From Thermoleophilia bacterium (GTDB taxonomy: Bacteria; Actinomycetota; Thermoleophilia; BMS3ABIN01): a stretch of DNA of 64,000 bases. Positions 1 through 30,500 of the stretch are shown here, piece by piece; positions within the stretch are counted from its first letter, which is position 1, and every line of letters begins with the position of its first letter. The stretch covers positions 49,325 to 113,324 of the forward strand of contig JAGVMV010000006.1 in NCBI GenBank assembly GCA_020053595.1. Direction: 5' to 3'. The notes beneath the pieces are model-generated. The model saw only the letters and a list, made by a program, of their open reading frames with translations. It did no database searches and was not told the origin of the DNA. The translations under genes were made by a program, and so were the position numbers.

Positions 1-967
1 GCGGGAGCAGTTAGAGCAGTTCGAGGGCAAGGTCAAGATTGTCACCCAGAACACGATGATGCGCAAGCTGCTGGAAACCGCCCGGCAGATAGCGCCCACG
101 GACTGCAACGTGCTGATATCCGGCGAGTCGGGAACCGGTAAGGAACTGCTGGCGCGCTACATACACTTTGTCAGCAACAGAAGCGAGGGGTCGTTTTTCG
201 CCATCAACTGCGGCGCTCTCTCCGACGAATTGCTGACGAATGAGTTGTTCGGGCACGAGAAAGATGCTTTCACCGGCGCCACGAGCCGGAAAGAGGGCAT
301 CATCGAGGCAGCTTCGGGCGGCACCCTGTTCCTGGATGAGATCACGGAAATGTCCCCCGCCATGCAGGTCAAACTTCTGCGGGTACTCCAGGAGAAGGAA
401 TTGCTCAGGGTGGGCGGCACCGAGCCGGTTGAAGTCGACGTCAGGATTCTGGCGGCCTCGAACCGGAACATACATGAGGCCACCAAGGAGAAAGAGTTCC
501 GGCAGGATCTCTACTACAGGCTGAACGTGGTCTCACTCCACATTCCTCCCCTCTCCGAGCGGCGGGATGACATACCTCTTCTCTGCCAGTACTTTCTCAA
601 GAAGCATTCACTGTTAATGAAAAAGGAAGTTCGGGAGATCTCCTCTTCCGTTCTGGCGCTGCTGGCAAATTACGACTTTCCCGGGAATGTGAGAGAACTG
701 GAGAACATAATCGAAAGAGGAGTAGCCCTGGCGAACGGACACGCTATCGAGCTGGCTCACCTGCCTGACGATCTCAAGGATCTGGAGATTAAGACCTTCA
801 GGAAAAGAGAGGGCAGGTTCCCGTCCCTGGAAGAGCAGGAAATATCCTACATATTATGGGTACTGAAAGAGACTGGTGGTAACAAGTCTATGGCGGCGAA
901 CATCCTCGGCATCGATCGCGTATCTCTTTGGCGAAAGATAAAAAAATACGGCATGGAAGAAACCTGA
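1..967 (+). CDS. sigma-54-dependent transcriptional activator (NtrC family), 5'-truncated by window edge
   Basis: AAA+ sigma-54 interaction domain (GESGTGKE Walker A, GAFTGA motif) and a C-terminal Fis-type HTH. The reading frame is open to position 1, so the receiver/sensor part lies outside the window. Confidence 0.85.
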   Translation, partial: REQLEQFEGKVKIVTQNTMMRKLLETARQIAPTDCNVLISGESGTGKELLARYIHFVSNRSEGSFFAINCGALSDELLTNELFGHEKDAFTGATSRKEGIIEAASGGTLFLDEITEMSPAMQVKLLRVLQEKELLRVGGTEPVEVDVRILAASNRNIHEATKEKEFRQDLYYRLNVVSLHIPPLSERRDDIPLLCQYFLKKHSLLMKKEVREISSSVLALLANYDFPGNVRELENIIERGVALANGHAIELAHLPDDLKDLEIKTFRKREGRFPSLEEQEISYILWVLKETGGNKSMAANILGIDRVSLWRKIKKYGMEET

Positions 968-3865: not shown

Positions 3866-5107
3866 TTACTGCGAAGTTTGCTTGTCCGGTCTCTTTCTCC
3901 CCGAAGGTTTTCCAGCTATCGCCAGCAAAACCAGTCCTGCCAGGCCGGAGACGGTTGATCCTGCCAGCACGCCTATTTTGGACACCGTCAGCTGCCCAGG
4001 ATTCTCGAAGGCCAGCAGGGAGATGAAAAGCGACATGGTGAAACCGATACCGGCGAGACAGGCGGCGCCATGCAGTTGCCGCCAGGAGACCGATGGCGGC
4101 AGAGACCCCAATCGCAGGCGTACGGCAAGCCAGGAAAAAAAGACCACCCCGATCTGTTTGCCGAGAAACAGCCCCAGAACGATACCCAGCCCGATCGGAT
4201 CGCCGAGGGATTGCAGGGGGTTTTTTTCAAGATGGATACCGGCGTTCGCCAGGGCGAAAAGGGGCACGATCAAATATGCGGCCCATGGCTGCAGCACACG
4301 CTCCAGTTGCAACAGGGGTGGCTCCCGATCGTGTTTTGATCCGGATGGGACAACCAGCGCCAGCAGCACACCGGCGATGGTCGCGTGCACCCCGGATTTC
4401 AGAAAGGCCAGCCAGATACCCAGACCCACCACCAGGTACACGGAGGTCATGCGCACTCCCAGCCGGTTCAACAACAGCAGCAGGACGAACAATATAAGGC
4501 CCGCACCCAGAGCCGGCCATGAGATGGACCCGGTGTAAAAAAAGGCTATGATGATAACGGCGCCAATATCATCAATTATCGCCAGGGCGGTCAAAAAAAC
4601 CTTGATGCCGAGAGGTATGCGTTTCCCCAGCAGGGCGAGGACGCCTATAGCCAGCGCGATATCCGTGGCCATGGGGATACCCCAGCCCCGCGCTCCGGCT
4701 CCACTGGCATTGAGCGCGAAGAAAATGGTCGCGGGCACGAGCATGCCCCCAACGGCGGCGATTGCTGGCAGCATCGCCTGTTTTCGGGATGAGAGTTCGC
4801 CAGCCAGCAGTTCCCGCTTAATCTCCAGCCCGACGACAAGGAAGAATACCGCCATCAATCCCTCGTTGATCCACAGATGAAGGGATTCTTGCGGCAGCAG
4901 GCTTCCTAAGCCCAGGGGGATTTCAGTCTGCCAGAGCGATTCATAAGCATCGGGCCAAAGGTTTGCCCAGGCCAGGGCGATGGCGACCGCGGCAAGCAGG
5001 ATAATCCCGCTTGAAGCCTCGGTTTGGAAAAAACGCCGGAATGGGCGCCAGATGATTTTATAAGGCGTGGTGACCGTCCTTATCAATAATTTGTCACATG
5101 GTATCAA
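3866..5107 (-). CDS. nhaA: Na+/H+ antiporter NhaA
   Basis: NhaA-family N-terminus (RFFQTEASSGIILLAAVAIALAWAN), about 12 TM helices and the expected length. Confidence 0.88.
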   Translation of the reverse strand: MIPCDKLLIRTVTTPYKIIWRPFRRFFQTEASSGIILLAAVAIALAWANLWPDAYESLWQTEIPLGLGSLLPQESLHLWINEGLMAVFFLVVGLEIKRELLAGELSSRKQAMLPAIAAVGGMLVPATIFFALNASGAGARGWGIPMATDIALAIGVLALLGKRIPLGIKVFLTALAIIDDIGAVIIIAFFYTGSISWPALGAGLILFVLLLLLNRLGVRMTSVYLVVGLGIWLAFLKSGVHATIAGVLLALVVPSGSKHDREPPLLQLERVLQPWAAYLIVPLFALANAGIHLEKNPLQSLGDPIGLGIVLGLFLGKQIGVVFFSWLAVRLRLGSLPPSVSWRQLHGAACLAGIGFTMSLFISLLAFENPGQLTVSKIGVLAGSTVSGLAGLVLLAIAGKPSGRKRPDKQTSQ

Positions 5108-5210
5108 AGCCTATGATGCAATGCCCGGGGCGATTTGTTCATTAATAGTGATTAGTATTGTTACGAATGAGGAAAATAGACATTAACCTGTAAATCCCAA
5201 AGGAGGGAAA

Positions 5211-5651
5211 ATGAGCAAGATTCTGGTTCCCGTTGACGGCAGTCCGTCATCGAAAAAGGCGGCCGACGCCGCCGTGGAGCTGGCCGCCATGACGGGAGAT
5301 GACATAGTAGCCCTGAGGGTTATAGATGTGGAGAATTACACCGGCCAGTGGGAGTTCATGCGTGACAAGGTCGAGGAGGAACTAAATCGCGACGCCAACT
5401 CCATTCTTGATGATGTCGAGGAGCGCGGCGCCAAAAAGAACATCAAGGTGGAGAAGGTGATCCGGTACGGGGACGCTTCTTTTGAGATCATCGCTCACGC
5501 CAGGGAGAACAGGGCCAGCGTCAGCTCGATCATGATGGGATCCGCGGGCCGTCGCGGCATCGCTCGTTCCTTCGTGGGCAGCACCGCCTCGCGTGTGGTC
5601 CGGCAGGTCGGCGCTGAGGTGCCCTGCCCCGTCACTATAGTTCCCGCTTAG
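5211..5651 (+). CDS. universal stress protein (UspA family)
   Basis: ILVPVDGS...A start and a C-terminal GSxGRxG ATP-binding motif, 146 aa. Confidence 0.85.
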   Translation: MSKILVPVDGSPSSKKAADAAVELAAMTGDDIVALRVIDVENYTGQWEFMRDKVEEELNRDANSILDDVEERGAKKNIKVEKVIRYGDASFEIIAHARENRASVSSIMMGSAGRRGIARSFVGSTASRVVRQVGAEVPCPVTIVPA

Positions 5652-5657
5652 CAGCCG

Positions 5658-6650
5658 CTAATTCGCGGTGTGGCCGGCCAGGCGGCGTTCGTCGTCCAAA
5701 AGCCCCAGGAAAGATTCGACCACGTCGGGATCCCACTGATTGCCGGCATCGCGCCGGAGGGTACTCGTGACCTGCCTTTGTGACATGGGCGGCCGGTAAG
5801 GGCGTGGCGAGGTCATGGCGTCGTAGGCGTCGGCGACGGCTATGATCCGCGCCTCGATGGGTATTTCCTCGCCGGACAGCCGGTCGGGATAACCATCGCC
5901 GTCGAAACGCTCCTGGTGATGGCGTATGACGGTAAGGAGCAGGTTGGCCGAGCGTAGCAGCTTGCAGATCTTTTCGCCGATGGCCGGGTGTTCCTGGACG
6001 GCGATGCGTTCAGTGTCCGTGAGTGCCCCCGGTTTCTGCAGGATGGTCTCGCTGATACCGATTTTGCCGATGTCGTGGAGGATGCCGGCGTTTCGTATCA
6101 CATCCACCTGTTCATTCAGAAGCCCCATCCGCTCGGCGATGCGGGCTCCGTACTCAGCCACCCTTTCCGAATGTCCCCGCGTGTAGGGATCATTGGCCTC
6201 GATGGCAAGCGCCAGCGTATAGATGACATCCCGGGCGCTTTCCAGGTCCTCATTCAGATGCCTGGTTCTGAGCAGGGACTTCACCCGAAGCAACAACTCC
6301 AGTTTTTCCACGGGCTTGGAGAGAAACTCATCAGCTCCCGCATCGAAACCCTTGACCTTGTCATCGATCTCGGTGAGCGCCGTCAACAAAATCACCGGGA
6401 TGCGGCTGGTGTCGTGGCAATCCTTGATTTTTTCACAGACCTGATAGCCGTTCAGGCCGGGCATCATCACATCGAGAATGATGAGATCGGGCTGCTCGTC
6501 CTTTTCCAGCTTCGCCAGGGCTTCGAGACCATCATAGGCGGCGATGACTTCATAACCGGCGGCGGTCAGGTAAGCTTCGAGCAGTTGCACGTTCTGGGGG
6601 CTATCGTCGACGATCAGGATCGTGTCCGTCTGGTTGTTGCCTTTTGTCAC
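5658..6650 (-). CDS. response regulator with HD-GYP phosphodiesterase domain
   Basis: N-terminal REC domain and a C-terminal HD-GYP domain (HD...HHERFDGDGYP). Confidence 0.85.
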   Translation of the reverse strand: MTKGNNQTDTILIVDDSPQNVQLLEAYLTAAGYEVIAAYDGLEALAKLEKDEQPDLIILDVMMPGLNGYQVCEKIKDCHDTSRIPVILLTALTEIDDKVKGFDAGADEFLSKPVEKLELLLRVKSLLRTRHLNEDLESARDVIYTLALAIEANDPYTRGHSERVAEYGARIAERMGLLNEQVDVIRNAGILHDIGKIGISETILQKPGALTDTERIAVQEHPAIGEKICKLLRSANLLLTVIRHHQERFDGDGYPDRLSGEEIPIEARIIAVADAYDAMTSPRPYRPPMSQRQVTSTLRRDAGNQWDPDVVESFLGLLDDERRLAGHTAN

Positions 6651-7042
6651 TGCTCCTCTTTCTTTTCCGCTGACTTGCCCAGAAAACCGGCGATAACGCC
6701 GGGGAATTCCCGTGTGTTGATCGGCTTTGGTATATAGCCGCTACAGCCCGCCTCACGGGCCTTTTCCTCGTCGCCGAGCATGGCGTGGGCAGTCAGGGCG
6801 ACGACGATAATATGCTTTGTGCTCTCGCCCTGCTTTAGCAGGCGTGTCGCTTCGAGGCCGTCCATTTCCGGCAGCTGTAAATCCATCAGGATCAGGTCCG
6901 GCTGCTCCCGTTCAGCAACTTCCAGAGCTTCGCGACCGCCTTTGGCTTGTACGACCCGATATCCATGAGCCTCGAGGAGGTCGCTGGCCAGCTCGAGGTT
7001 CATCTGGTTGTCTTCCACGACCAGTATCTTTTCCCCGCTCAT
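6647..7042 (-). CDS. single-domain CheY-like response regulator
   Basis: REC domain only. Overlaps the downstream gene by 4 nt, consistent with an operon. Confidence 0.8.
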   Translation of the reverse strand: MSGEKILVVEDNQMNLELASDLLEAHGYRVVQAKGGREALEVAEREQPDLILMDLQLPEMDGLEATRLLKQGESTKHIIVVALTAHAMLGDEEKAREAGCSGYIPKPINTREFPGVIAGFLGKSAEKKEEQ

Positions 7043-7096
7043 GGGCGACCCAAACTGTCAGGCGCGGGCTGTTCCCATCGATTTCCGTGCATACGA

Positions 7097-9052
7097 TTAA
7101 TCAACAGGTCCGTCTTTCTGGCGCGATGAGTACAGCGAGCGGCTCTCCAGCCGGCAAAGCAGTTCTTTCTTCTCGATCGGTTTCACGAAACAGTCGAAAG
7201 CGCCCAGCTCCCTGGCCCTCCGGCTGCGTTCCAGGATGGAGATTACTATTACCGGGATATCTTTCGTCTCCGGGTCGGCTTTAAGTTCCTGCAACACCTG
7301 CCAGCCGTCCACTTTGGGCAATAGAATGTCCAGAGTAATGACATAAGGTTTAAGTTCCTTCGCCAGCCTGAGCGCCTGCTCGCCGTCGAAGGCGCGGGCT
7401 ACGCGGTAACTGGCTTCGCCCAGCCAGAGCCCGAGCAGCTCGCTGGTCTGCAGGTCGTCCTCGACCACCAGTACCAGCTGTTGGCCCGGCGTTGTCTCGG
7501 GTTCGATGAAAGGCTCCGGCATCGCCCCCCTTTGCCAGTCCGTCGACCGCCTGCGGCCCGGGGTGACCGGCAGGCTGAAGGTGAACCTGCTGCCCTTGCC
7601 CAGCTCACTTTGCACCCAGATCCGGCCACCGTGCAGCTCGACAAGTTTTTTACTGAGCGCCAGGCCGACTCCCGTGCCCTCGTATTTGCGCGTGTGGGCG
7701 CTATCCAGCTGCTGAAACATGGAAAAGATCTTTTTCTGGTCATCCTGGCTGATGCCGATACCGGTGTCCGTGACGGATATCTCGACAATGTTCTCAACAG
7801 CCGCGGCCTCCAGGATGACGCGCCCGCCTTCTGGCGTGAACTTGATCGCGTTGCTGACCAAATTATATAGTATCCGCTTGATTTTGGCGGCGTCTGCCTG
7901 GACCAATGGTAGCGAATCCGAAGGCTGTACTTCCAGCCTGACGCGCCGTTGAGCGGCGAAAGGATGTCCGAGCTTGCGGATGTCTTCCATCACCTGGGGG
8001 ATGGAGAGGTCCTCCTGGGCCAGCTCCTCGTCCTCGGAGCTGATCTTGGCAAGGTCGAGGATGTCGTTGATCAGCTGCAGCAGGCGCCGGCCGCTGGTCT
8101 CGATGTTGACCAGGTATTGTTCCTCCCGGTCGCCAAACTTGTTCTCGCCCATGTCCATCAGCACCTCGGAGAAGCCGATTATGGCGTTCAGCGGCGTGCG
8201 CAGCTCGTGGCTCATCACCGAGAGGAACTCAGATTTAAGGCGGTTGGCCTCCAGCAGGTTAAGATTGACCAGCCGCAGGTTGTTCTGGGAATCCTTGAGG
8301 TTGTCGGCCATCTTGTTGAAGCTGTCGGCCATGTCACCGACCTCGTCTCTGGATTTCACCCGGATCCGTTCGCTCAGGTCACCCTCGGCGATATTGTGGA
8401 TGACGCTGACTACCTGCCGGAGCGGTTTGAGGACGGTCGTCCGCAGGGCAAACCACAATACGAACAACAGGGCTGTGACGCCGGAGATGAAAACCAGGGC
8501 CATGCGGGCCTTGTCATCCCAGACTGCCTGATCAATGCTGGCCATCGAGGTGGATACCAGCACGGCTCCACGCAGTGGCAGGTTGTCATTGTGGCATTGC
8601 TGGCAGGTGGCCTCATTGAGCAGCGGCCTGACCTGTACCAGGTATTGGCCGCTTTCGCGCTCCTCGTAATATTGCGTCGGGTCGCCGGTCCGCAACACGC
8701 CCTGGATCTCGTTATTGGCCTCCGCATGGACCCCGGTGCCGCCGAATACCTCGTAACCACGGTTGGAGAAAACCTCGATCCGGTCGACCTCGGGAGAGCC
8801 GCGGAGTTTATCCAGGGCATTGGTGGCGACCATTCCTTTTTCCGCCAGCATCGTGTTGGCGATGCTGTTGCCCACATTGACGCTCAACTGCTCCGTGCTC
8901 AACTCTTTCTGATAATGCAGGTCCCGGGAATCGCTACTCACGTCGAACCAGGCGAAAAGACCGAAGCCAATAATGATAACCGCCATTACCAGGCTCAGTA
9001 TCTTGGCCTCCAGGCTTCTCTCCAGCGGGTTGTGGAATCTGCCCGGCGTCAT
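7097..9052 (-). CDS. hybrid sensor histidine kinase; periplasmic domain carries a CxxCH heme-binding motif
   Basis: TM, a ~150-aa extracytoplasmic domain containing CQQCH, TM, HAMP, HisKA (SHELRTPLN), HATPase_c and a C-terminal REC domain. Confidence 0.85.
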
Positions 9053-10629
9053 GCGTCATCCCTGTAGTCCGGGATCAGGTCCGGGATGGTGAAGGTGAAG
9101 CGGCTGCCCATGCCGGGTGAACTTTGCACCCAGATCCGTCCGCCATGCAACTCGACCAGTTTTTTGGTCAGGGCCAGTCCCAGGCCGGTGCCCTCGTACT
9201 TGCGCGCGTAGGAGCCCTCGACCTGCAGGAATTCCGAAAAGATGCGCTGCTGGTCTTTTTCACCGATGCCGATGCCGGTATCCGTTACCGATATCTCCAT
9301 AACGCCGTCGCGATGGATGGACTCGATGGCGACTTCGCCTCCCGCGGGCGTGAACTTGATGGCATTGCTGAGCAGGTTGTAGAGGATCTGCTTGACGCGG
9401 GCCGGATCGGCTGTCACAAGTTCGACGCCGGGGTCCGGTTCGATTGAAAGGCGGATGGATTTCTTTGCCGCCAGCGGCTCGACTATGTTTTGGACTACCG
9501 CCATGGCGTCGGGTAGTAACATGGGTACGGGGCGGACTTCGATGGTGCCGGACTCCACCTTGGCCAGGTCGAGGATGTCATTGATCAACTGCAACAGGTG
9601 CCTGCTGGAGACGACGATGTTGCCGACATACTGCACCTGCTTCGGGTTGAGGTTGCCGTAGGTCTCATCTTCCAGGAGCTCGGAAAAACCGATGATCGAG
9701 TTCAGCGGCGTTCGCAGTTCGTGACTCATGGTCGCCAGGAATTGCGACTTCAGCCGGTTGGCGGTCTCCAGTTGTTTGTTGGTCAGCTGCAGCTCCTGTT
9801 CCCGCGACTGCAGGTTCTGGTTCACCTGTTCCAGTTCGTCAACCTTGCCCAGAATCTCCTGGCTTTGCACTTCCAGGGATTCGGTCATGCGGTTGACCGA
9901 GCGCCCAAGCTCGCCCAGTTCATCCCTGGAATTGATGGTGACTCTTTGGCCGAAGTCGCCTCTGGCTACCGCCTGGGTAAGCCTGGCCAGCCTGGCTACC
10001 GGCTTTACCATGTAGAAGTTAAGGCTGAGATAGAGCAGCACCAGCAACGCGACGACTCCCAGGCCACCGATGAACAGGAACTTGGTCTGCTGATCGCTTA
10101 TCAGGGCGTCCCGGGGTTCGAGGTACATGTAAATACCGATGGTCGCCATCGGTTTGCCATCGACTGTCAGAGGGGCGACCGCCTCGATAACCTTGCGGCC
10201 GTCCTTTTCACTCTCGGCGTGGGTCGCCTGGTTGGTTTCCAGCGGCGCGTAGTCCTCGGGGTCCGCGACCTCGCCGATCTGGCCGCGGTCGGTGCTGGCG
10301 ATTCGGATGATCTCGCCATCCTGAGGCGCGTAGACAGATATTTTGTGAATATCCGGGTTGAGTTCGTCGAGCTTTTCGATCTCGCTTTGAAAGTGTTGGT
10401 AGCTGATCTCCTCCGTGGAGTTGGTGTCGGCGCTGAAGAACTGGGCTGCGAGGGTGGCGCGCTCTTCGAAGTCTTCGTTGATTGTCGTGCTGAGAGTGTT
10501 GATGGAGATGTAGACGATCCCGCCGATGATCGGGATGCACATGGCCGCCAGCAGCAGCAGGATCTTCGCGCGCAGGCCGAACCGTTTCTTGAGGGAAACC
10601 TGGCCGGTATCTTCAGGGGCTGCTTTCAT
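9049..10629 (-). CDS. sensor histidine kinase (periplasmic sensor, HAMP, HisKA, HATPase)
   Basis: Two TM helices around a ~170-aa sensor domain, then HAMP, a coiled coil, HisKA and HATPase_c. Overlaps the next gene by 4 nt. Confidence 0.85.
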
Positions 10630-10936
10630 GGTCGAAAGAGACTGTCCTTTGGCTTTGACGACGAGTATCCCTGAATACGGGATCGAGCGGGCAAAAACCT
10701 TTTCGGAAGCGGGGAATAATTACTGAGAATACTGTGTTTGAGCGGGAGCTGTGGTAGAATTCCGCTTCACACCATGGGTGCTGACAGGTCAAAGTATACC
10801 ACAGCAGTTCCAGTTATCCCTGGGGCTCGGGAGACACGTTTCGGGCCAGTGCTTGTGACGCAGCTCCTTGTCGCCGGCGGTGTTGGAATCGATGCTGAGT
10901 TGTGCTCAAACCTGTACCAAATGCAGACAATAAGCT

Positions 10937-11884
10937 ATGATGACAGATGGATATATTCGACCCAAGGAGCTTGAATTGGGTTCCCTGCTCGGCAGGTTCT
11001 TCCTTTTGCTTTTTCTTATGATGATTCCGTTGGCGGGCGCGGCCTGTTCTGACGGTGAAAGCTTGCCGTTTTCTCCGGGCACCGTTTCAACGTCCACATC
11101 CGCGGACCTCCGTATCTCCATAGCTGGCATGTTCACCCCGAAGGAAACCTACTCGATTTATTCGGATCTGCTCGATTATATTGGTGAAAAGACCGGGCGC
11201 TCAACCATCCTGCAGCAGACCGGCAGTTATTCGAGTGTAAACGACCTGTTGGCACGCAAGGAAACTGACTTCGCGTTCCTGTGTTCTGGGGGTTACGTGG
11301 AGGCCTCTCATCATATGGGCCTGGTTCCTCTGGTGGCACCAGTGGTCAATGGGCAGCCGCTTTATTATTCCTATATCCTCGCTCGTGAGGGCAGTGGCAT
11401 TCAAAAATTCGAAGATTTTCGTGGCCGCCGCTTTGCCTTTGGCGATCCCCTGTCGCTGACCGGCACTCTGTATCCAATGTCGCTTATAAAACTCTCGGGC
11501 AACGGGTTGGACAGTTTTTTTGGAGATTACATTTACACCAACAACCACGACAATTCCATTAAGGCCATGATGGAAGGTGTGGTGGACGGGACAGCTGTCG
11601 ACAGTTTTATTTTTGACTACCTGAAGGCGCGTAATCCGGCCAGTGTCGCGGGGCTGGTGATAATTGAGAAATCACAGCCTTTCGGCTCGCCGCCCATTGT
11701 TGCTCGCCCGGGGCTACCGAAAGATTTGCGTGACCAGCTGATTCAAGTCCTCGTGGGGATGCAGGACGATCCCAAAGGCAGGGAAATCCTTACGCAGCTG
11801 GGAATCGAACGGTTTGTCCAGGTAGATGAATCTCTTTACGAGTCGGTTGAGCAACTGGAGGCGGAAATGACAATCCGTCAGTAA
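10937..11884 (+). CDS. PhnD/SsuA-like periplasmic substrate-binding lipoprotein (sensor accessory?)
   Basis: Signal peptide with a lipobox-like LAGAAC, and an ABC phosphonate/sulfonate-binding-like fold. Sits directly upstream of a histidine kinase gene. Confidence 0.65.
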   Translation: MMTDGYIRPKELELGSLLGRFFLLLFLMMIPLAGAACSDGESLPFSPGTVSTSTSADLRISIAGMFTPKETYSIYSDLLDYIGEKTGRSTILQQTGSYSSVNDLLARKETDFAFLCSGGYVEASHHMGLVPLVAPVVNGQPLYYSYILAREGSGIQKFEDFRGRRFAFGDPLSLTGTLYPMSLIKLSGNGLDSFFGDYIYTNNHDNSIKAMMEGVVDGTAVDSFIFDYLKARNPASVAGLVIIEKSQPFGSPPIVARPGLPKDLRDQLIQVLVGMQDDPKGREILTQLGIERFVQVDESLYESVEQLEAEMTIRQ

Positions 11885-11898
11885 CGGGGGAGATTTTA

Positions 11899-13386
11899 GT
11901 GCGGCGCCTCTCATCTCGCATAGCGAACGCAAGCCTGGGGAAAAAAGTCGCCGGGCTGCTGGCGTTAACAATCGCGCTTGCGGGCATCATTCTCTCGGGC
12001 GTGGGCACCCAAAGGCTGTACGGCCTTCTCATAGAGCAAAAACTTGATTCTTCCGAGCAGATCACCAGCGCGCTGGCCTCATCGGCGCTTCCTGATATTC
12101 TCACGCATGACTTCATAAGTTTACAGGACAGCACCGATCAGGTTCTGGCCCGTGACCGCCGTGAGGAAGTAGTCTACGTAGCAGTCTACGACACAAATGG
12201 TGCTCCCCTGGTTCATTCATCACGCCTTGATGGCGCGCAAGTTCCCGAAGAGACCCGGGAAATACGAAAGATCAGCGCGCCGCTGACCATTAACAACCGG
12301 AGCTTCGGCCGGATAGACATGTATATTTCGCTGAACCGGATCGAGGGCACCGTTTTATCCACGGTAATCTCGTTGGGATTGATTCTGGCGCTTGTGGTCG
12401 TGGCCTCCTCGGTGGGTATGGCGTTGGTGGCTTATCGAGTGGTAGTGGTGCCGGTGCAGAAGTTGGCCGTAAGCGCCAGGCAGATATCCGAAGGTAACCT
12501 CGATCTAAAAATCCCGGTTAAGTCGTACGACGAACTCGGTGGGCTGTCTGACGATTTCAACCGCATGGCGGAAAGTCTCAAAGAGCGTCAGGAGGAACTT
12601 CAGATCGCCTACGAAAAACTGGAAAGAAACTACCAGGCCATCAGGGAAGCATACAAGCAGCTTCGCGATCTGGACCGGATGAAATCAAAGTTCATCGCCG
12701 TGGTCTCCCATGAACTGCGGACGCCGCTATCTCTGATAAAGGGATATGTCGAGACCATGGCCGCGGGCAATCTGGGAAAGGTAACGGCGTTGCAGCAGAA
12801 AAAGCTGGGAGTTATCGTCGATAGCGTGGACCGCCTCTCGGACATCGTTGACAAGTCCCTGGATTTCTCGGTCATTGAACAGGGTAAAATGGCCATCGAG
12901 AAACAGAAATTGCAGCTAAGTGAAATTATCGAGCAGGTAGTGGATGAATTCGCTCTGGAGATATCGGGAAGGAAGTTAATCCTGGAGCAGCAGATCCCCC
13001 GGAAATTGCCGCTCATGCTCGGAGACAAGGTCAGGTTGCACCAGGTGTTTCATAACCTGGTAGCCAACGCGGTTGATTTTACATCTGAAAAAGGAACGGT
13101 TGGCATCCACGCGGGTTTTGATTCAGAAAAGAAGCTCAATGTGGTTGTAGTCACGGATACAGGACCGGGCATATCCAGTGAAGACCTGGAGCACTTGTTT
13201 TCTCCTTTTTATCAGGTGGAAAGTCCGATAATCCGCAAACATCCTGGAGTAGGCCTGGGTCTTGCTATCGCCAAGGGGATCGTGGAGCAGCACGGAGGGA
13301 ACATCGACGTAGTGAGTGAAGTGGGCAAGGGTTCGACCTTCACAATATCGTTTCCCGTGCTCGATGGTGTGAGAGATCAGATATGA
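11899..13386 (+). CDS. sensor histidine kinase (HAMP-HisKA-HATPase)
   Basis: TM, a periplasmic loop, TM, HAMP, an H-box (SHELRTPLS) and N/G boxes. Confidence 0.85.
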   Translation: MRRLSSRIANASLGKKVAGLLALTIALAGIILSGVGTQRLYGLLIEQKLDSSEQITSALASSALPDILTHDFISLQDSTDQVLARDRREEVVYVAVYDTNGAPLVHSSRLDGAQVPEETREIRKISAPLTINNRSFGRIDMYISLNRIEGTVLSTVISLGLILALVVVASSVGMALVAYRVVVVPVQKLAVSARQISEGNLDLKIPVKSYDELGGLSDDFNRMAESLKERQEELQIAYEKLERNYQAIREAYKQLRDLDRMKSKFIAVVSHELRTPLSLIKGYVETMAAGNLGKVTALQQKKLGVIVDSVDRLSDIVDKSLDFSVIEQGKMAIEKQKLQLSEIIEQVVDEFALEISGRKLILEQQIPRKLPLMLGDKVRLHQVFHNLVANAVDFTSEKGTVGIHAGFDSEKKLNVVVVTDTGPGISSEDLEHLFSPFYQVESPIIRKHPGVGLGLAIAKGIVEQHGGNIDVVSEVGKGSTFTISFPVLDGVRDQI

Positions 13387-13410
13387 TGAATGGATTAACC
13401 AGAAGGCCGC

Positions 13411-14196
13411 TTGCAAAGGGGATTGGGAGGGAATATGACATCTAGTAAAGTTCTGGTTGTTGATGATGAGCCGGGGATATGTGACATTGTCTGCCTTAAT
13501 CTCGAAGGTGAGGGTTATGAAGCCGAATGTGCCCATAGCGGCAGGTCAGCATTGGACAAAATCAAAGCCACACCACCGGATCTGATCATTCTCGATATCA
13601 TGATGCCCGAGGTGGACGGCTGGGAAGTCCTCTCATTCATCAAGGGTGATCCGGTAACCAGCGAGATCCCGGTCATCCTTCTATCCGCGAAAAGTGAAGA
13701 GATCTCCAAGCTGCTGGGATTCCAGCTGGGGGCGCAGGATTACGTTACAAAGCCCTTCAGTGTCAAGGAGCTGATCGCTCGCGTCGGCGCCGCCCTCGAG
13801 CACGTTCGAGCACGGGCGGAAGAGGCTCAGCCATCAGGACCTTCCTATGAAGCAGGGAAGATCGCTGCCCTCAAGGATAATGAGGTCTTTTTTCTCGATC
13901 CGTCCGAGATATTCTTTGCCGCCGCCGACCGGAATAATACATATCTTCACACGAATGAGGAAAAGTATCTCGTGCGCAGGAATTTAAGCTATATAGAAAC
14001 CCGGCTGACCGACAGGTTTCTGCGAGTTCATAAGAGTTATATTGTCAATCTGGGCAGAGTTAGCAAGCTTTCTTCACCTACCCGTGGTTCCTACCTCGTA
14101 GAACTTACTAACGAATCAAGGACCAGGGTTCCATTGAGTCGGAGTAAGGTGGGGCTGCTCCGCCGCGCCCTTTCGGGGGCCGGAGCAGCCCATTAG
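13411..14196 (+). CDS. LytR/AlgR-family response regulator (REC + LytTR DNA-binding domain)
   Basis: REC domain followed by a LytTR domain (FLRVHKSYIVNLGRV). Confidence 0.85.
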   Translation: MQRGLGGNMTSSKVLVVDDEPGICDIVCLNLEGEGYEAECAHSGRSALDKIKATPPDLIILDIMMPEVDGWEVLSFIKGDPVTSEIPVILLSAKSEEISKLLGFQLGAQDYVTKPFSVKELIARVGAALEHVRARAEEAQPSGPSYEAGKIAALKDNEVFFLDPSEIFFAAADRNNTYLHTNEEKYLVRRNLSYIETRLTDRFLRVHKSYIVNLGRVSKLSSPTRGSYLVELTNESRTRVPLSRSKVGLLRRALSGAGAAH

Positions 14197-14565
14197 AAGC
14201 AGATCAAGTCAGTAGTTACGGCTGGCTCAGGGCTTCCCGACAACTCCATTGAAGCTGTTTTTGTTGTAGATCACCCATACCACTTGCTTTTCTGGACACT
14301 TCTCTTTCCTCCCTGTTCGTCTGTACCGTAATAAGAGTAACTATATAATAGAAATTATTTACCTATTGTAGTTATATTATGACGTACTGTGCCAAAAGCA
14401 GATTAATTGTGAAATGCACAAGTCATACAACATCAGGGAAATCCCCTATACACTATCTGCTTAATTAAAGTTAATATCAGGCCGAGAAAGTATAAGCGGT
14501 GCATAAATTAATATATTCTGTGTTTCTAGCTTGATAGAAAGCATATCCGCATAACTTCACAGGCA

Positions 14566-14597
14566 AGATGCACAATATATTGTGATATGCACATCAC
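14566..14597. promoter_or_regulatory. overlapping dyad-symmetric operator-like motifs in an AT-rich promoter region upstream of the cytochrome/molybdoenzyme operon
   Basis: CACAATATATTGTG is a perfect 14-bp palindrome and overlaps the near-palindrome GTGATaTGCAcATCAC. The 13-bp motif TGTGA(A/T)ATGCACA also occurs at 14409-14421. Local GC is about 38% against about 60% genome-wide. Confidence 0.3.
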
Positions 14598-14751
14598 GTA
14601 CTAGTTTGCGGGATAAGGAGGTGGAGGCGAACGGCATATATCATCAAGACCGCGGAAGAGGAGTGTTCGTCCGGCGTGGATTCCAGGTCAAGCACTCAGA
14701 CATATAACGAAAAACAAGTTCAATTGGGAGGTGAAGGAATTGAGATTTAAG

Positions 14752-15654
14752 ATGAGCCTAAAGAAGAAGGTTATTGCAATATCAATGTTGGCGGCGTTGC
14801 TTACGTTCGTCATTGGACTGAGCGCAATCTTCGCTTCTTCAGCGCCCCCGGCGAGTCCTCACTATAGTTATAGCGAGTGCACCGCCTGTCATTCGGATCA
14901 GATCGATTACCACAGCACTGCATCCAGCCATCAATACTCGGAGTGCATCTCCTGCCATGGCGATCGCACGGACGAGCAATCCCTTTACGACGCTTCTTAC
15001 GGTCAGTATTTTGATGGTCCGCACAAGGTGCACCTGACCTCCAGCCAGCTTTCGTTTACCTGTACCCAGTGCCATGAATCAGTGGATATCAGGGAAAAGT
15101 CCGCGGCTTCAGTCAGGCGACAGGTATCGATGGAGTGCTCCAAGTGCCACAGTCCCTTCCCGACATCAATGAATCCTGCATGGGCCACGCAGGACTGCAC
15201 GACATGTCACACGGACTGGCAGAGCAGCCATTCATCCGATCCCTCGATCAACACGGCGAATATCGCACCAGCCGACTGCATTGGTTGCCACGGAGGAAGA
15301 TCCTGGTACCTGTCGGGTATGGCTTCGGCTAGTCTGGCCAGAGGCAACACCTACTGGGCCAGCTATGACGACTACTCGGCCAGAAAACTGTCGGTCGACT
15401 TCTCTATCTCGAACAGCGGTTCGGGAACGGCAAACGGTTTGAACTTATCCAACGTTCTGTCTACGAACGGAGTGGGCGCGATAACGACGTTGCCACTGTC
15501 TCTTGGGGATCTGTCGCAGGACACCGCCGCCGATTTCACGATGGTGTATTCGGTGCCGAATGGAGTCGGATCCTTCAGGACTTCACTGTACGCCAATGCT
15601 ATAAATGACGACGATCAGACGCAATACTGGCCTTCACCGCCGCCCTCTCCCTGA
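14752..15654 (+). CDS. secreted hexaheme c-type cytochrome with a C-terminal non-heme beta-rich domain and a Pro-rich tail
   Basis: N-terminal signal/TM segment and six CxxCH motifs (CTACH, CISCH, CTQCH, CSKCH, CTTCH, CIGCH). A ~120-aa Ser/Gly/Asn-rich domain follows and the protein ends in PSPPPSP. A GTG at 14731 is an alternative start. Confidence 0.8.
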   Translation: MSLKKKVIAISMLAALLTFVIGLSAIFASSAPPASPHYSYSECTACHSDQIDYHSTASSHQYSECISCHGDRTDEQSLYDASYGQYFDGPHKVHLTSSQLSFTCTQCHESVDIREKSAASVRRQVSMECSKCHSPFPTSMNPAWATQDCTTCHTDWQSSHSSDPSINTANIAPADCIGCHGGRSWYLSGMASASLARGNTYWASYDDYSARKLSVDFSISNSGSGTANGLNLSNVLSTNGVGAITTLPLSLGDLSQDTAADFTMVYSVPNGVGSFRTSLYANAINDDDQTQYWPSPPPSP

Positions 15655-15705
15655 GGCGGAAAGAGCGAAGCTCTGAAAAGCCAAAACGGGAAAAGGAGCG
15701 GTATC

Positions 15706-15861
15706 GTGATAGCGAAAGGTAAGAAAACAGACAAACAGGAAAAAAGGCGCAAGGCCTACGCGAAGCCGGAACTGGCAATGCACGACAACTTGAAGGATAT
15801 AACCTTCGAGTGCCAGGCCTGGCAGTGCAGCGTTGTAGTGCCGCCGCCTCCGGAGCACTAG
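15706..15861 (+). CDS. small ORF (51 aa), Lys-rich N-terminus with a C-terminal CxxxC-VVVPPPPEH
   Basis: GTG start preceded by AAGGAG at 7-nt spacing. Lies between the cytochrome and the molybdoenzyme gene. It is absent from the ORF track only because it is shorter than 60 aa. Confidence 0.35.
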   Translation: MIAKGKKTDKQEKRRKAYAKPELAMHDNLKDITFECQAWQCSVVVPPPPEH

Positions 15862-15944
15862 GAGAAAGCAAATGCGTCGGAATGACAGAAATAATAAAGC
15901 GCAGCATCAAATGCGCTGGAAGCCAAGCGAAAGAGGTGAGCTAA

Positions 15945-18557: not shown

Positions 18558-18575
18558 AAAGGAGGGTGATTTAAC

Positions 18576-19127
18576 ATGGCTGCAAACCCCAATCAGCTCG
18601 GCTTTGAATACGATATGGTCAAATGTATCGGATGCAGGGCCTGCGAGGGAGCGTGCAAACAGCAGAACAACGTGGAGTTGGGAGTGCGTTTTCGGAGGGT
18701 GACCACTTTTAACGGCGGCACCTACCCGACTCCGTTCACCAACTACATGTCGATGGCGTGCAACCACTGTGAAAAGCCCGCCTGTGCGGCGGCTTGTCCG
18801 GTGGACGCGATCACCAAACGGGCCAGCGATGGCATCGTCATCATTGATAACAACAAGTGCAACGGATGCAAGCTGTGCATGGAGGCTTGTCCCTATGGTG
18901 CTCCACAGTATAACCCCGTGACCAAAAAGGTGGAGAAGTGCCATATGTGCTACACGCGCATCGACGCCGGCCTGTCTCCAGCCTGTGTGCAGACCTGCAT
19001 GGCGCGAGTGCTCAAGCATGGAGTGCTGTCAACACTGACAGGTGACAAGGGCAAGAACGTAGCCCACTTTGCCAATCCCAAACACACGCACCCGTCGATA
19101 CGGATTTCCCCGCCCGACAGGCAATAA
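18576..19127 (+). CDS. 4Fe-4S ferredoxin-type electron-transfer subunit (DmsB/PsrB-like)
   Basis: Four Cys clusters, including CxxCxxCxxxC-type motifs (CIGCRACEGAC, CNHCEKPACAAACP, CNGCKLCMEACP). Confidence 0.9.
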   Translation: MAANPNQLGFEYDMVKCIGCRACEGACKQQNNVELGVRFRRVTTFNGGTYPTPFTNYMSMACNHCEKPACAAACPVDAITKRASDGIVIIDNNKCNGCKLCMEACPYGAPQYNPVTKKVEKCHMCYTRIDAGLSPACVQTCMARVLKHGVLSTLTGDKGKNVAHFANPKHTHPSIRISPPDRQ

Positions 19128-19136
19128 GGAGTAAAA

Positions 19137-19781
19137 ATGGAAGCTCTGGACAACAAGATAATGGACAATGATACACGGACACGGATTGTTGTCTATGACT
19201 TCCTGAGGCGTGTGTTTCTGCACGAACCCACGGATGAGTTCTTCGGGCGCCTGGTTGAGAGTGGCATACTCGAGGATCTAAACGACCTGCCCGGCATCGA
19301 GAAGATGCGGTCTTATGTGCAATCGGCCCTCTCTTCCGGAGATATCGATGCAGTGCGGCAGGACTTCTACCAACTGTTCCTGGGACCCAGGCGTCTGAAG
19401 GCTCCCCCGTGGGAATCGGTTTACCGGTCGGAATTACGGCTGGTAAATCAAAAATCGACAACCGAAGTGCGGCAACTGTACGCGCGATTCGGGTTTGAGA
19501 CTGAAGCCGGCCAGCTGGAAGACCACTTCGGCACGGAATGTGACTTCCTCTTCAGGTTGTGCAGCCTCTTGGGAGTGATCGACAAGCACGGGCGGTACGA
19601 TCTCCTGGGCGTCCAGAAGCGCTTCATCGGGGATCATCTGCTTAAATGGGTGCCCGGGTTCGCGGAAGACATCATGAAAAACGCGCTTACCGATTACTTT
19701 CGTGGGCTAGGAGAGTTCGTGGGCTATTGGGTGCGCAATGAAGAAGAATACCTGGACACAGTGTGGTCTGAAAGCAAATGA
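19137..19781 (+). CDS. TorD/DmsD-family redox-enzyme maturation chaperone
   Basis: Conserved EDHFGTECDFL (E-x-DH) motif of the TorD family at about 210 aa, and an operon position after the catalytic and FeS subunits. Confidence 0.75.
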   Translation: MEALDNKIMDNDTRTRIVVYDFLRRVFLHEPTDEFFGRLVESGILEDLNDLPGIEKMRSYVQSALSSGDIDAVRQDFYQLFLGPRRLKAPPWESVYRSELRLVNQKSTTEVRQLYARFGFETEAGQLEDHFGTECDFLFRLCSLLGVIDKHGRYDLLGVQKRFIGDHLLKWVPGFAEDIMKNALTDYFRGLGEFVGYWVRNEEEYLDTVWSESK

Positions 19782-19829
19782 TGCATCAGTAGGGTCTGGA
19801 ATATTAAATGGAAAGACAGGTGAATTAAA

Positions 19830-20060
19830 ATGCCAAGCATAGGATGGCAGGAACTGGTTGTAGTCTTGGTGATAGCATTGATGATATTCGGTACCAAGCG
19901 TTTGCCCGAAGTTGGTCGTTCGATGGGCAGTGCCTTGAAGGAATTCAAAGCGGGGACTCAGGAAATAAAAGGAAAAACGAGCATTCGAGCGGAAGCGATC
20001 GCAGTTGAGCCGAAAAGCGTTGCCGCTGAGCCGAAAAGCGATGCCATCGAAACAATCTGA
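19830..20060 (+). CDS. tatA: twin-arginine translocase TatA/E
   Basis: N-terminal TM helix followed by the amphipathic GTKRLPEVGRSMGSALKEFK helix, 76 aa. Confidence 0.85.
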   Translation: MPSIGWQELVVVLVIALMIFGTKRLPEVGRSMGSALKEFKAGTQEIKGKTSIRAEAIAVEPKSVAAEPKSDAIETI

Positions 20061-20231
20061 GCGGAGCTGCCCGTAGGTGTGCAGCTGTTAGGATCTACCG
20101 GGGTTGGGTGAGAGAGAAAGTCACGCGGATTGAAGGTTTTACTTGTGAGTTTGTGACACGATTTCTTCGGGATATCAACAGGTGTGACATTAAGGGAGCG
20201 GAAAAAGACATGCAGGTAAACGTGAACGCCG

Positions 20232-20633
20232 ATGTGTGAGTCTCCAAAAAACAGAGCGATGGAAATACGGTCAAAAATCTGGATTGAAATCGATGGCAAG
20301 TGTGTGTTCAGCAAGGGGCGGGTAATCCTGCTCGAGGCCATCGAGCGGTATGGCTCCATAAACCGGGCCGCCGCCGAAACCGGTATTTCCTACCGGCGCG
20401 CGTGGGGGTACATCAAAGCCATGGAGAAAAGGCTGGGAATGGATCTGGTGGAGACGAAAACGGGAGGAGCTGGAGGGGGAGGCGCGACGCTCACTGACGA
20501 AGCGCGCCGCTTTCTGCTTGATTATGAGAGTCTGGAATCCGGCATCAACGAGCTTGTGGATAAGCGTTTCGGTGACATCTTCAAGGCTCAAAAAACCGCT
20601 AAAGTCGGGCGGCGTTATGCAAATTTGTCATAA
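20232..20633 (+). CDS. ModE N-terminal domain-like winged-helix regulator (no TOBE domains)
   Basis: ISYRRAWGYI...TGGAGGGGATLT matches the ModE HTH signature TGGKGGGGAxLT. Confidence 0.7.
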   Translation: MCESPKNRAMEIRSKIWIEIDGKCVFSKGRVILLEAIERYGSINRAAAETGISYRRAWGYIKAMEKRLGMDLVETKTGGAGGGGATLTDEARRFLLDYESLESGINELVDKRFGDIFKAQKTAKVGRRYANLS

Positions 20634-20662
20634 CCGACACAGTTTGATATCTGGAGGAAGTC

Positions 20663-21712: not shown

Positions 21713-21721
21713 AGAGTTGTC

Positions 21722-27535: not shown

Positions 27536-30500
27536 ATGGCCGATCTACCTCATCACGAAATCATCGCGGAAAGCGGCCCCCTGGTCAAACTTTTCATCGA
27601 TGGCCGCCGTTTGCAGGTCAACCCCCGCATGACCATCCTGGAAGCCGCGCACGCGAACAGCATCGAGATACCTACCCTTTGCAATGACCCCCGTCTCGCG
27701 CCCGTCGGCAATTGTGGCCTGTGCCTGGTGGAGGTCGTCGAAACCGGCCTGGTGTACGCCTGTCAGACCCCCGTGGCCGAAGGCATGGAGGTCACCACCC
27801 TTAACCCGGAGATCGCCGAGGCGCGCAAACAAAGACTCACCGAGTATCTGACCAGCCACAACGCCTATTGTGAACCGCCCTGCCATAACGCGTGCCCGGC
27901 GCGCATCGATATTCCCGCCTACCTGGCGGCGATCGCCCGGGGGGATGACGCCGAAGCGATCAGGATCATCAAGCACCGGCTGCCATTGCCGCGCATAATC
28001 GGCCGGGTTTGCCCGCGCCCCTGCGAGAGCGCCTGCCGCCGTACCCAGGTTGATCAGGAACCGGTTGCCATCTGTCAGCTGAAGCGTTTCGCCAGCGACA
28101 GCGTCAGCGCCGCCGGCTCCGCGAGCATTGAAGAGCCCGCCGCATCCAGCGGCAAAAAAGTCGCCGTCATCGGCAGCGGCCCATCCGGCCTCTCCGCCGC
28201 CTATTACCTGGCTTTGAGCGGCCACCAGGTCACTATCTTCGAAGCTCATTCAGAACCAGGCGGTATGATGCTGACCGGTATTCCGCCCTACCGCCTGCCG
28301 CGGGAGATCATCCAGGCGGAAGTCGAAGACATCCTTAAAACCGGTGTCGAATTGAAGCTGAACAGCCGCTTCGGCAAAGATATTACTTTCGAAAGCCTGG
28401 AGTCCGATGGCTACGCGGCTACTCATCTGGCCATCGGCGCCCAACGGGGCTCGACCGGTGGTATCCCCGATGCAGGAGAGGGACAGGGCATCTATTCCGC
28501 CGTCGATTTTCTCCACAAAAGCAACGCCGGGCTATGGGACGCTCCCCTGGGCAAAACGCTGGTCGTGGGCGGTGGTTTCACCGCCCTGGATGCCTGCCGG
28601 TCTTCAATCCGGCTAGGCGCCGATGAAGTCACCGTGGTCTACCGCCGCTCCCGTAAAGAGATGCCGGCGACCGCGGACGAGGTCGAGGAGGCCGAACTGG
28701 AGGGCGTCAGGCTTTCGCTGCTCACCGCGCCGATCTCTGTTGTCCGCGAAGACGGCAAGGTAACCGGTGTCGTTTGTCAGACGATGGAGCTGGGCGAGCC
28801 CGACGACAGCGGCAGACGCCGCCCCGAAGCAGTGGAGGGTTCCGAGTTCACCATCGAGGCGGATACGGTCATCCTGGCCATCGGCCAGGAGGTCGACCAG
28901 TTCGGACTGGAAGACTCTCTGGATCTGAGCGGTTGGGGCACCATCGAGGCCAACCAGCGCACTCTGGCGACCAGCAGGGATGGAATTTTTGCCGGGGGCG
29001 ACTGCGAAACCGGCCCGGCTACAGTCGTTGAAGCCATCGCCGCCGGCCGCAGGGCCGCGGTTGCCATCGATGCATATATTAACGGCAAGGACCCCGATGA
29101 AGCCTGCTCAGCTCCCTCGGCCAGCCTCAAAAGACGCCGGCCGAAGCTGTTCGACATCGGCGCCAGGCCGCTTTCCGATGATAAACGGATCCATATGCCC
29201 GAACTCGCCATCGCCGACCGTGACAACTTCGATGAGATCGAGCTGGGTTTCGAGGAGAAGGCCGCCAGGAAAGAGGCCGCCCGCTGCCTGCAGTGTACCT
29301 GCCATGCTGTTTCCGCCTGCGAGCTGCAGCGCCTTTCCATCCGTTATGGCGCCGGCACCACCGAGTTTAAGGGCGAGGGCCAATATGAGCTTTACGATGG
29401 CTCGCCCATACTCCAGCTGGACCGCAAACGCTGCATCAAGTGCCACAACTGCGTCCGCATCTGCAACGAGCTGGAAATGAACAATGTTTACAGGGTAGAT
29501 GAAAATGGACATCCCGCCCTGCGGGGGAAAACCTATAAAGATTCCGGCTGCGTTTCGTGCGGACAATGCATCGACGTCTGCCCGACCGGCGCTCTGGTCA
29601 ACACTCAGCTGAAGGGTGTCCGTGAATGGGAGCTGGAAAGGGTGAGGACGACCTGCCCGCTCTGCGGCACCGGCTGTAATTTCGATCTGAACGTCAAGGA
29701 GGGCAGGGTCGTCGGGGTTACCACCAATGCGGATTCTCCGGTCAATAACCGCGCCCTCTGCGTCAAGGGCCGATATCACTCGGACTTGGTCCACAGCCCC
29801 GATCGCCTCACCACGCCGCTGGTCAGGAAAAACGGCAAGCTCGAGGAATCCACCTGGGATGAAGCCCTGGGCCTGGTGGCCTCGAGGCTTCAGGAGATAA
29901 AAGACCGGGACGGCGGCGATGCTTTCGCCGCCCTGAGTTCGGCCCGCTGTACCAACGAGGAAAACTGGGTGATGCAGAAATTTGTGAGGGCGGTGATGGG
30001 CACCAACAATCTCGACCATTGTGCCCGCACCTGACACGCTCCCACCGTGGCCGGTCTGGCCATATCGTTCGGCAGCGGAGCAATGACGAATTCCATCAAC
30101 GAAGTGGGATTCTACGACGCCCTGCTCATCATCGGCTCCAACGCCACCGAAGCGCATCCCATTATCGGGGGCAAGATGAAGCGTGCCGCGAGGCGCGGAG
30201 CCAGGATAATAGTGGCCGACCCCCGTCATGTAGAACTGGTCGATTACGCCGAGATCTGGCTGCGGCTCACCCCCGGCACTGACGCCGCGCTGGTCAACGG
30301 CATGATCAACATAATCATCAATGAAGGCTGGGCCGACCAGGAGTTCATGGAGGAGCGCTGCGAAGGTTACGACGCACTCTGGGAAGTCGTGCAGAAGTAT
30401 ACGCCGGCGATGGTCAGTGAAATCACCGGCGTCCCCGAGGACCAGCTCTACGCGGCGGCCGAGATTTATGCGCAGACGCCGAGGGCGGGCATCTTCTACA

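Follow-up and report, generated by a model that had tools for sequence, protein, structure and literature searches.

We find that four adjacent genes on the minus strand of a 64,000-nucleotide stretch of DNA (the window, taken from Thermoleophilia bacterium assembly GCA_020053595.1, contig JAGVMV010000006.1, positions 49,325 to 113,324) are best explained as a two-sensor, two-regulator signalling module, an explanation that we hold with good confidence. In this module, a hybrid histidine kinase with a predicted c-type heme in its sensor (HK2) and a heme-less kinase (HK1) would control an HD-GYP enzyme. The genes run in the order kinase, hybrid kinase with a CQQCH motif, lone CheY-like receiver and HD-GYP regulator, and all four open reading frames (ORFs) are found where the original prediction, made from the DNA letters, had placed them (Table 1).

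The CxxCH motif of HK2 had been taken as the hallmark of a Geobacter-type, PAS-like heme sensor, and this identification holds up. Residues 60-170 match the family PF21563 ('Mcp40H-20_sensor') with 37.7 bits (E 2.8e-9), above the cut-off of 27. Searched against the PDB as a single sequence, the sensor finds only 3B47 (GSU0582, E 8e-6) and 3B42 (GSU0935, E 8.5e-4), and a profile of 42 relatives finds the same entries at E 1.1e-24 and E 1.2e-20. The motif, residues 150-154, is the sole CxxCH in HK2, holds two of the four cysteines of the protein and aligns on the CQSCH of GSU0582. Given that His143 of GSU0582 is chain residue 109, an offset of 34, chain residue Met26 corresponds to Met60, the distal heme ligand, and it is with this residue that Met68 of HK2 aligns.

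Both ligand positions are strongly conserved. Of 1.84 billion representative proteins searched exhaustively with HMMER, 223 were relatives of the HK2 sensor at E <= 0.001; a word-indexed homologue search gave three relatives for this sensor and eight for that of HK1, and looking up HK2 itself in public assemblies gave no exact match. When the best 150 of the 223 relatives, together with 3 close homologues, were re-aligned to the HK2 sensor, they yielded 283 domain matches. C-x-x-C-H is in register in 231 of the 233 matches that cover the motif, and Met occupies position 68 in 141 of the 144 that cover that position. Orthologues, which the original prediction had named as a check, point the same way, since CxxCH and the distal Met (within an NTML motif) are kept in all nine that we recovered from genome contigs. 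These alignments support placing the HK2 sensor in the Geobacter-type heme-c sensor family, as a member of a Met subtype, and the heme is predicted to be attached covalently to Cys150 and Cys153.

Structure prediction agrees with this placement. An AlphaFold2 model of the sensor, built from a 42-sequence alignment, is confident (mean predicted local distance difference test score, pLDDT, 92.5; predicted template modelling score, pTM, 0.81) and consists of helices 14-69 and 73-84, strands 89-96 and 100-102, helix 114-122, strands 126-132 and 135-145, a short helix at 148-152 with the CxxCH motif, strand 160-169, and helix 171-199, which runs into the second transmembrane (TM) segment. The topology, alpha-alpha-beta-beta-alpha-beta-beta-(short CxxCH helix)-beta-alpha, is that of a single-Cache/PAS-like domain with the CxxCH helix inserted, and the first helix continues unbroken from TM1 into the sensor, where it bears Met68. 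Foldseek ranks 3B42 and 3B47 first among PDB structures, followed by the sCache domains of WalK, CitA and DcuS; the root-mean-square deviation to 3B42 and 3B47 is high because those crystals are domain-swapped dimers. A four-helix-bundle heme pocket, the other fold that had been considered, is rejected, since five strands form the core of this confident model and its matches are to sCache/PAS-like domains. The sensor lies between hydrophobic segments 18-36 and 185-203, the N-terminus is basic, the loop starts with acidic residues and a HAMP domain follows TM2. By hydropathy and domain logic only, these features place the CxxCH in an extracytoplasmic loop, rather than in the cytoplasm or the membrane. 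We write extracytoplasmic instead of periplasmic because relatives of the host are deposited as Actinomycetota.

HK1 and HK2 share 37% identity across 514 aligned columns (E 7e-102). Comparing profiles of the two sensors also gives a match (probability 90%, E 1.4e-6, 184 columns) in which HK1 has a gap at the CxxCH helix of HK2, and it is because of this match that we assign a fold to the HK1 sensor. The HK1 sensor has no match in Pfam and no sequence match in the PDB, and its AlphaFold2 model, built from 6 sequences, is of low confidence (pLDDT 62.8), with no Foldseek match at E <= 0.001 and only non-significant ones of PAS/GAF/Cache-like type. Conservation of the sensor among orthologues (62-82%) is above that of the HK2 sensor and includes the invariant patches QFFSAD, PED and IEA.AP. 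We read HK1 as a heme-less paralogue of HK2 that may sense a different, second signal. The dimerization and histidine phosphotransfer (DHp) helices of a kinase set its partner specificity, and those of HK1 and HK2 are nearly identical, with shared stretches of 16 and 13 residues; the two kinases therefore probably serve the same receivers. The H-E-x-x-T phosphatase motif is present in both.

The four genes share a strand, are tightly spaced and keep their order in relatives, as is expected of a single operon. That they form one transcription unit is a prediction from this layout and a part of the overall explanation. HK1 and HK2 meet in an ATGA (9049-9052) and the receiver and HD-GYP genes in a GTGA (6647-6650), so that the 4-nt overlap originally described for all successive genes is real at these two junctions. 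It does not extend to the third, where the HK2 stop codon TAA occupies 7097-7099 and the receiver gene starts at 7042, leaving a spacer of 54 nt in which a consensus scan found no terminator-like site. HK2-to-receiver spacing is short and variable in orthologous loci, and on one contig (L012) the genes overlap. The start codon of the HD-GYP gene is GTG, and a GAGGAG motif ends 2 nt before it. The operon promoter presumably lies in the intergenic region upstream of HK1. We also noted a GC-rich stem-loop on the minus strand (CCGGCG-TTAT-CGCCGG followed by TTTTC, 6687-6702), within the 3' end of the receiver gene and about 40 nt before the HD-GYP start. We take it to be a chance occurrence, as the regional count of such sites is not above that in shuffled sequence.

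A pattern scan of GTDB species genomes identified nine orthologous loci (L001-L009), with sensors 44-69% identical, and one distant locus in Nitrospirota. By tblastn, the order HK1-HK2-REC-REC/HD-GYP (REC, receiver) is present in eight of the nine (L001, L002, L003 and L005-L009), and L004 ends inside HK2. Across these loci, identities are 69-80% for HK1, 61-78% for HK2, 68-76% for the lone receiver and 72-82% for the HD-GYP protein. On L012, the gene order is confirmed by gene calls made independently and by precomputed Pfam annotations. Genes for Usp, NhaA, a LuxR-type regulator and a MASE3-GAF kinase recur as neighbours in several loci.

On the output side, all three receivers of the operon retain the acidic pair, the phospho-acceptor Asp and the conserved Lys. 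The HD-GYP domain scores 122.9 bits against PF13487 (cut-off 27.2) and, aligned with PmGH and V-cGAP3, keeps the ligands His160, His192-Asp193, His221, His244-His245 and Asp274, as well as the GYP signature (Gly253-Tyr-Pro255). These His and Asp ligands are conserved in alignments with V-cGAP3 (5Z7C, E 2.7e-39), PmGH (4MCW, E 2.7e-32) and PA4781 (4R8Z). At the position of PmGH Glu185, a third-metal ligand (kdpEtqnH), the protein has Tyr (ndpYtrgH), as does V-cGAP3, and a binuclear subtype is therefore expected, not the trinuclear subtype of PmGH. We predict an active enzyme of the binuclear type that would act as a phosphodiesterase, with cyclic di-GMP (c-di-GMP) as the default substrate and 3'3'-cyclic GMP-AMP (3'3'-cGAMP) as another possible one. 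Specific names from characterized systems (TorS, BarA, ArcB, HrmK and NosR) were dropped for the proteins of the operon, as no NCBIfam equivalog reached its cut-off; TorS scored 270 against a cut-off of 676, BarA 259 against 890 and ArcB 224 against 838, and membership of the HD-GYP regulator in the NosR family (NF053512) is ruled out at 203.6 bits against 400.

Table 1. Features of the four-gene operon, with positions in the window and residue ranges in the encoded proteins
Feature	Positions	Strand	Description	Basis
HK1	9049..10629	-	526 aa; TM-sensor-TM-HAMP-HisKA-HATPase: TM 23-41, extracytoplasmic sensor ~42-184, TM 185-203, HAMP 207-253, HisKA 294-361 (His303), HATPase 408-517	Pfam
HK1 sensor domain (aa 42-184)	10078..10506	-	without CxxCH	profile-profile match to HK2 sensor
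HK2 hybrid kinase	7097..9052	-	651 aa; HK1-like plan plus C-terminal receiver: TM 18-36, sCache_heme sensor, TM 185-203, HAMP 203-254, HisKA 273-339 (His282), HATPase 387-497, receiver 527-635 (Asp575)	Pfam
HK2 extracytoplasmic sensor (aa 37-184)	8501..8944	-	PF21563 / sCache_heme	Pfam, PDB matches, AlphaFold2, Foldseek
Met68 codon	8849..8851	-	predicted distal heme ligand	aligned to 3B47 chain residue 26
C150-Q-Q-C153-H154 codons	8591..8605	-	predicted heme-c attachment and proximal His	aligned to GSU0582 CQSCH
HK2 receiver domain (aa 527-635)	7148..7474	-	Asp531/532, Asp575, Lys624	PF00072 E 4e-19
HK2-to-receiver spacer	7043..7096	-	54 nt; sole non-overlapping junction	
Lone CheY-like receiver (REC)	6647..7042	-	131 aa; Asp11, Asp54, Thr84, Lys106	Pfam PF00072 E 6.4e-28
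REC-HD-GYP response regulator	5658..6650	-	330 aa; receiver 11-123 (Asp60), HD-GYP 149-310 (HD_5/HD)	Pfam PF13487 E 1.5e-35, PF00072 E 2e-29
Intergenic region upstream of HK1	10630..10936	.	common to divergent gene at 10937	

We suggest that the module could work as follows. The single-Cache domain of HK2, on the outer face of the membrane, would hold one c-type heme through thioether links to Cys150 and Cys153, with His154 as the proximal and Met68 as the distal ligand. By analogy with GSU0582 and GSU0935, oxidation of the heme, or binding of nitric oxide (NO) or carbon monoxide (CO), would displace Met68. Because the helix bearing Met68 continues TM1 and the last helix of the domain continues TM2, the signal could pass through HAMP to the kinase core, such that release of Met68 would shift both TM helices and, with them, the balance between kinase and phosphatase activity at His282. 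HK1 would report the second signal, and the two kinases would jointly set the phosphorylation of the HD-GYP regulator. Phosphate arriving at Asp60 would set the activity of the phosphodiesterase, which in turn would lower c-di-GMP or a related cyclic dinucleotide. Since no histidine phosphotransfer (Hpt) domain is available, the lone receiver (Asp54) and the receiver of HK2 (Asp575) may serve as competing acceptors or sinks. The direction of regulation and the phosphotransfer partners are what we infer from this arrangement.

Several points weigh against this explanation. No Hpt domain (PF01627) is encoded in the four proteins or in the approximately 60 window ORFs of at least 90 aa, which makes the role of the HK2 receiver hard to place, and the pairing of kinases with receivers is read from gene adjacency only. 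The same set of ORFs contains no GGDEF cyclase and no cytochrome c maturation gene, while a hexaheme cytochrome c gene at 14731-15654 indicates that the organism makes exported c-type hemes. The promoter and terminator were not identified: a sigma-70 consensus scan found no site in the intergenic region upstream of HK1, and consensus scans over 5100-11000 gave counts no better than shuffles. The closest solved relative of the HD-GYP domain, V-cGAP3, hydrolyses 3'3'-cGAMP. Finally, a related contig discussed below shows that the regulators can persist without these kinases.

As to the signal, the original prediction of redox-controlled c-di-GMP turnover is supported, with caveats. The intact HD-GYP domain makes control of a cyclic dinucleotide a reasonable reading, but redox is one of two plausible signals for HK2, the other being NO, both proposed by analogy, and the nearest solved enzyme is a cGAMP phosphodiesterase. 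The domains of GSU0582 and GSU0935 are high-spin when oxidised and low-spin with His/Met ligation when reduced, with midpoint potentials of -156 and -251 mV; NO binds to them in either oxidation state and CO to the reduced form, with displacement of Met60. We take seriously, without expecting it to hold, the possibility that the HK2 heme domain is instead a specific NO (or CO) sensor, for which gas binding and not oxidation state is the physiological signal. The purified Pseudomonas domains of the same family that one preprint examined bind NO (bioRxiv 10.64898/2026.02.01.703092), as do the Geobacter domains; the best NCBIfam match of the HD-GYP regulator, though below cut-off, is to the NO-pathway family NosR, and the window encodes a flavodiiron protein, rubredoxin and desulfoferrodoxin, which are associated with detoxification in anaerobes. 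The conserved distal Met, however, is the feature linked to the redox-dependent spin and ligand switch of the Geobacter proteins, whereas the Pseudomonas NO binders differ on the distal side, with water or Cys59, and the window shows no sign of NO metabolism, such as genes for nitrite or NO reductase. Neither signal excludes the other.

The division of labour between the kinases could also differ from the joint control that we favour. As ArcB, TorS and RpfC illustrate, hybrid kinases usually relay phosphate through an Hpt domain, of which we found none in the window. HK1, a plain kinase and the first gene of the operon, might be the direct kinase of both regulators, with HK2 as a modulator that needs an Hpt protein encoded elsewhere, acts mainly as a phosphatase or sink, or forms a heterodimer with HK1. 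The phosphatase motif of both kinases and their nearly identical DHp helices are compatible with such roles. Nevertheless, HK2 has a complete kinase core with a phospho-acceptor His282 and is co-conserved with the regulators in eight loci, and some hybrid kinases are known to phosphorylate separate receivers directly, so we consider this arrangement doubtful.

Less probable still, in our view, is an output enzyme that degrades 3'3'-cGAMP or another cyclic dinucleotide and not c-di-GMP. The 3'3'-cGAMP-specific Vibrio enzyme V-cGAP3 is a closer match than the c-di-GMP enzymes PmGH and PA4781, and shares the Tyr that stands in place of PmGH Glu185. Most characterized HD-GYP proteins act on c-di-GMP, though, among them PA4781, which also lacks that Glu, and no cGAMP synthase was seen in the window. 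That the CxxCH arose by chance, or marks a non-heme metal or disulfide site, in an ordinary ligand-binding Cache domain, an idea to which the working scaffold of heme-less HK1 lends something, is scarcely credible when the domain passes the PF21563 cut-off, the motif aligns to a crystallographic heme site and is retained, together with the distal Met, in nearly all of the domains aligned here, and CxxCH is 99% conserved family-wide (bioRxiv 10.64898/2026.02.01.703092).

How does the preferred two-sensor module compare with known systems? The Geobacter proteins GSU0582 and GSU0935 are the best PDB matches of the HK2 sensor in both sequence and fold, although identity is only about 22-26%. As in HK2, their domains belong to the same family and lie between two TM helices followed by HAMP, and the CxxCH, proximal His and distal Met all correspond. 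In contrast to HK2, a hybrid kinase in an operon with an HD-GYP regulator, they are methyl-accepting chemotaxis proteins that feed CheA, and their host belongs to the Desulfobacterota, whereas the host lineage of the operon is deposited as Actinomycetota.

A recent preprint (bioRxiv 10.64898/2026.02.01.703092) merges PF21563 with DUF3365/Tll0287 (PF11845) into a family named sCache_heme, in which the CxxCH helix is an insertion in a single-Cache fold and which is fused to histidine kinases, methyl-accepting chemotaxis proteins, GGDEF/EAL enzymes and cyclases. The HK2 model shares this topology, with CxxCH on a short inserted helix. Heme ligands vary in the family, from a His/Cys pair in Tll0287 to the water or Cys59 of the Pseudomonas proteins, and HK2 has the Geobacter-type Met. 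The same preprint reports sCache_heme as rare or absent in Actinomycetota, against which we find the domain fixed in a clade of metagenome-assembled genomes (MAGs) deposited in that phylum. An HD-GYP partner receives zero mentions in it, and the operon described here has one.

Our searches also brought up other architectures of this sensor. Three tandem CxxCH sCache_heme domains in one extracytoplasmic region occur in 43 of 152 relatives (149 from the representative search plus the 3 close homologues), and in distantly related tandem-domain proteins such as P0005, P0006, P0010, P0024 and P0030 a HAMP domain connects them with an output that is a class III nucleotide cyclase, a PP2C (SpoIIE) phosphatase or a Ser/Thr kinase. 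A distant sCache_heme-HAMP-GAF histidine kinase (P0014, on contig L011, 95-3952), with a sensor 36% identical, immediately follows cytochrome b/c and cbb3-type cytochrome c genes, a context that suggests that some members of the family are tied to respiratory complexes.

The overall logic of the operon, heme sensor to kinase to REC-HD-GYP (or EAL) protein, with tuning of c-di-GMP and modulation by extra receivers, resembles that of NosP-NosK-NosR of Burkholderia and HnoX-HnoK-HnoB/HnoD of Shewanella. The sensors of those systems, unlike that of HK2, are separate cytoplasmic proteins with non-covalent heme in a FIST or H-NOX domain, and the HD-GYP domain of NosR is degenerate (HG-GTP), whereas that of the operon is intact. 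RpfC-RpfG of Xanthomonas likewise couples a membrane hybrid kinase to a REC-HD-GYP c-di-GMP phosphodiesterase. In RpfC the input is a multi-TM region that senses the fatty-acid signal DSF, and the kinase has an Hpt domain of its own; the operon differs in having a heme Cache input, a second kinase, a lone receiver and no Hpt that we could find. A literature search for c-type heme combined with HD-GYP and a kinase found no such system described, and a 2022 census of c-di-GMP inputs does not mention c-type heme.

The host lineage deserves comment. All nine orthologous loci come from MAGs deposited as Thermoleophilia, Actinomycetes or Gaiellales, and assignment of the host to Actinomycetota rests on these deposited labels of relatives. 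At the start of the window, which truncates it, is a gene for a sigma-54 enhancer-binding protein with AAA+ and Fis helix-turn-helix domains (56-967, plus strand). Sigma-54 systems are unusual in Actinomycetota, which points to an atypical lineage or to a classification in need of checking.

One contig shows the operon in a reduced form. Logan contig L013 (SRR30681574) is 93-95% identical to the window and lacks window positions 10056-7652. Aligned over 9447-12667 with window 10804-5197, it retains a remnant that joins HK1 residues 1-191 to HK2 residues from about 468 to 651, and a frameshift affects HK1 near residue 128; the deletion runs from mid-HK1 to late HK2 and spares the receiver and HD-GYP genes, both of which are intact. 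The chimeric protein represents 16 member sequences, which makes a one-off assembly error less likely. Seen at contig level only, L013 reflects either natural loss of the two sensor kinases or a join made during assembly.

Elsewhere, the window encodes a set of proteins typical of an anaerobe, namely a flavodiiron protein, rubredoxin, desulfoferrodoxin and an Fe-S fumarase. A cluster at 41250-43535 (plus strand) of anaerobe-type oxidative and nitrosative stress genes encodes the flavodiiron protein (ODP plus flavodoxin), a rubredoxin-domain protein and desulfoferrodoxin. Next to the operon, a block at approximately 10805-23665 is missing from L013, where molybdenum cofactor genes abut HK1. It encodes a phosphonate-type binding protein, a third paralogous HAMP kinase, a LytTR regulator and the hexaheme cytochrome c, as well as a molybdopterin oxidoreductase with an Fe-S subunit and a NarJ-like chaperone, a LysR-like gene, a MoeA-like gene and a MOT1 molybdate transporter. 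GC content falls to 0.46 at 14001-15000 within this block, which is possibly a respiratory island with its own two-component system. Farther along, at 27536-31663 (plus strand), ORFs 27536..30034 and 30047..31663 form one frame interrupted by an in-frame TGA (30032-30034) in CART-*-HAPTVAGL, and L013 has the same split. Judged by sequence, this codon is a selenocysteine site typical of formate dehydrogenases, and read-through would yield a molybdopterin enzyme joined to domains of the 2Fe-2S, 4Fe-4S and FAD/NAD(P) types.

Previous work has already described this sensor family, this output domain and the logic leading from heme sensor through kinase to HD-GYP, and the operon is not a new category. 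It is modestly unusual in its host lineage, its paired heme and heme-less kinases and, within the window, its lack of an Hpt domain. It nonetheless provides a clean and conserved case in which an extracytoplasmic c-heme sensor appears coupled, via a two-component pathway, to cyclic-dinucleotide turnover, and it places this sensor family in a lineage where it has been reported as rare. The pair of kinases with and without heme, and the deletion variant in L013, offer natural comparisons for what the heme adds. We put forward one broader scenario, tentatively and with more doubt than belief: an uncultured anaerobic clade of Thermoleophilia-like Actinomycetota may have fixed a horizontally acquired heme-c Cache kinase and duplicated it into a heme/heme-less pair, both members wired to HD-GYP, so that external redox state (or NO) and a second ligand are integrated at the cell surface and jointly determine the level of cyclic dinucleotide. 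If this is true, the operon would be the first c-type-heme input to cyclic-dinucleotide signalling in Actinomycetota, built as an Hpt-less branched pathway.

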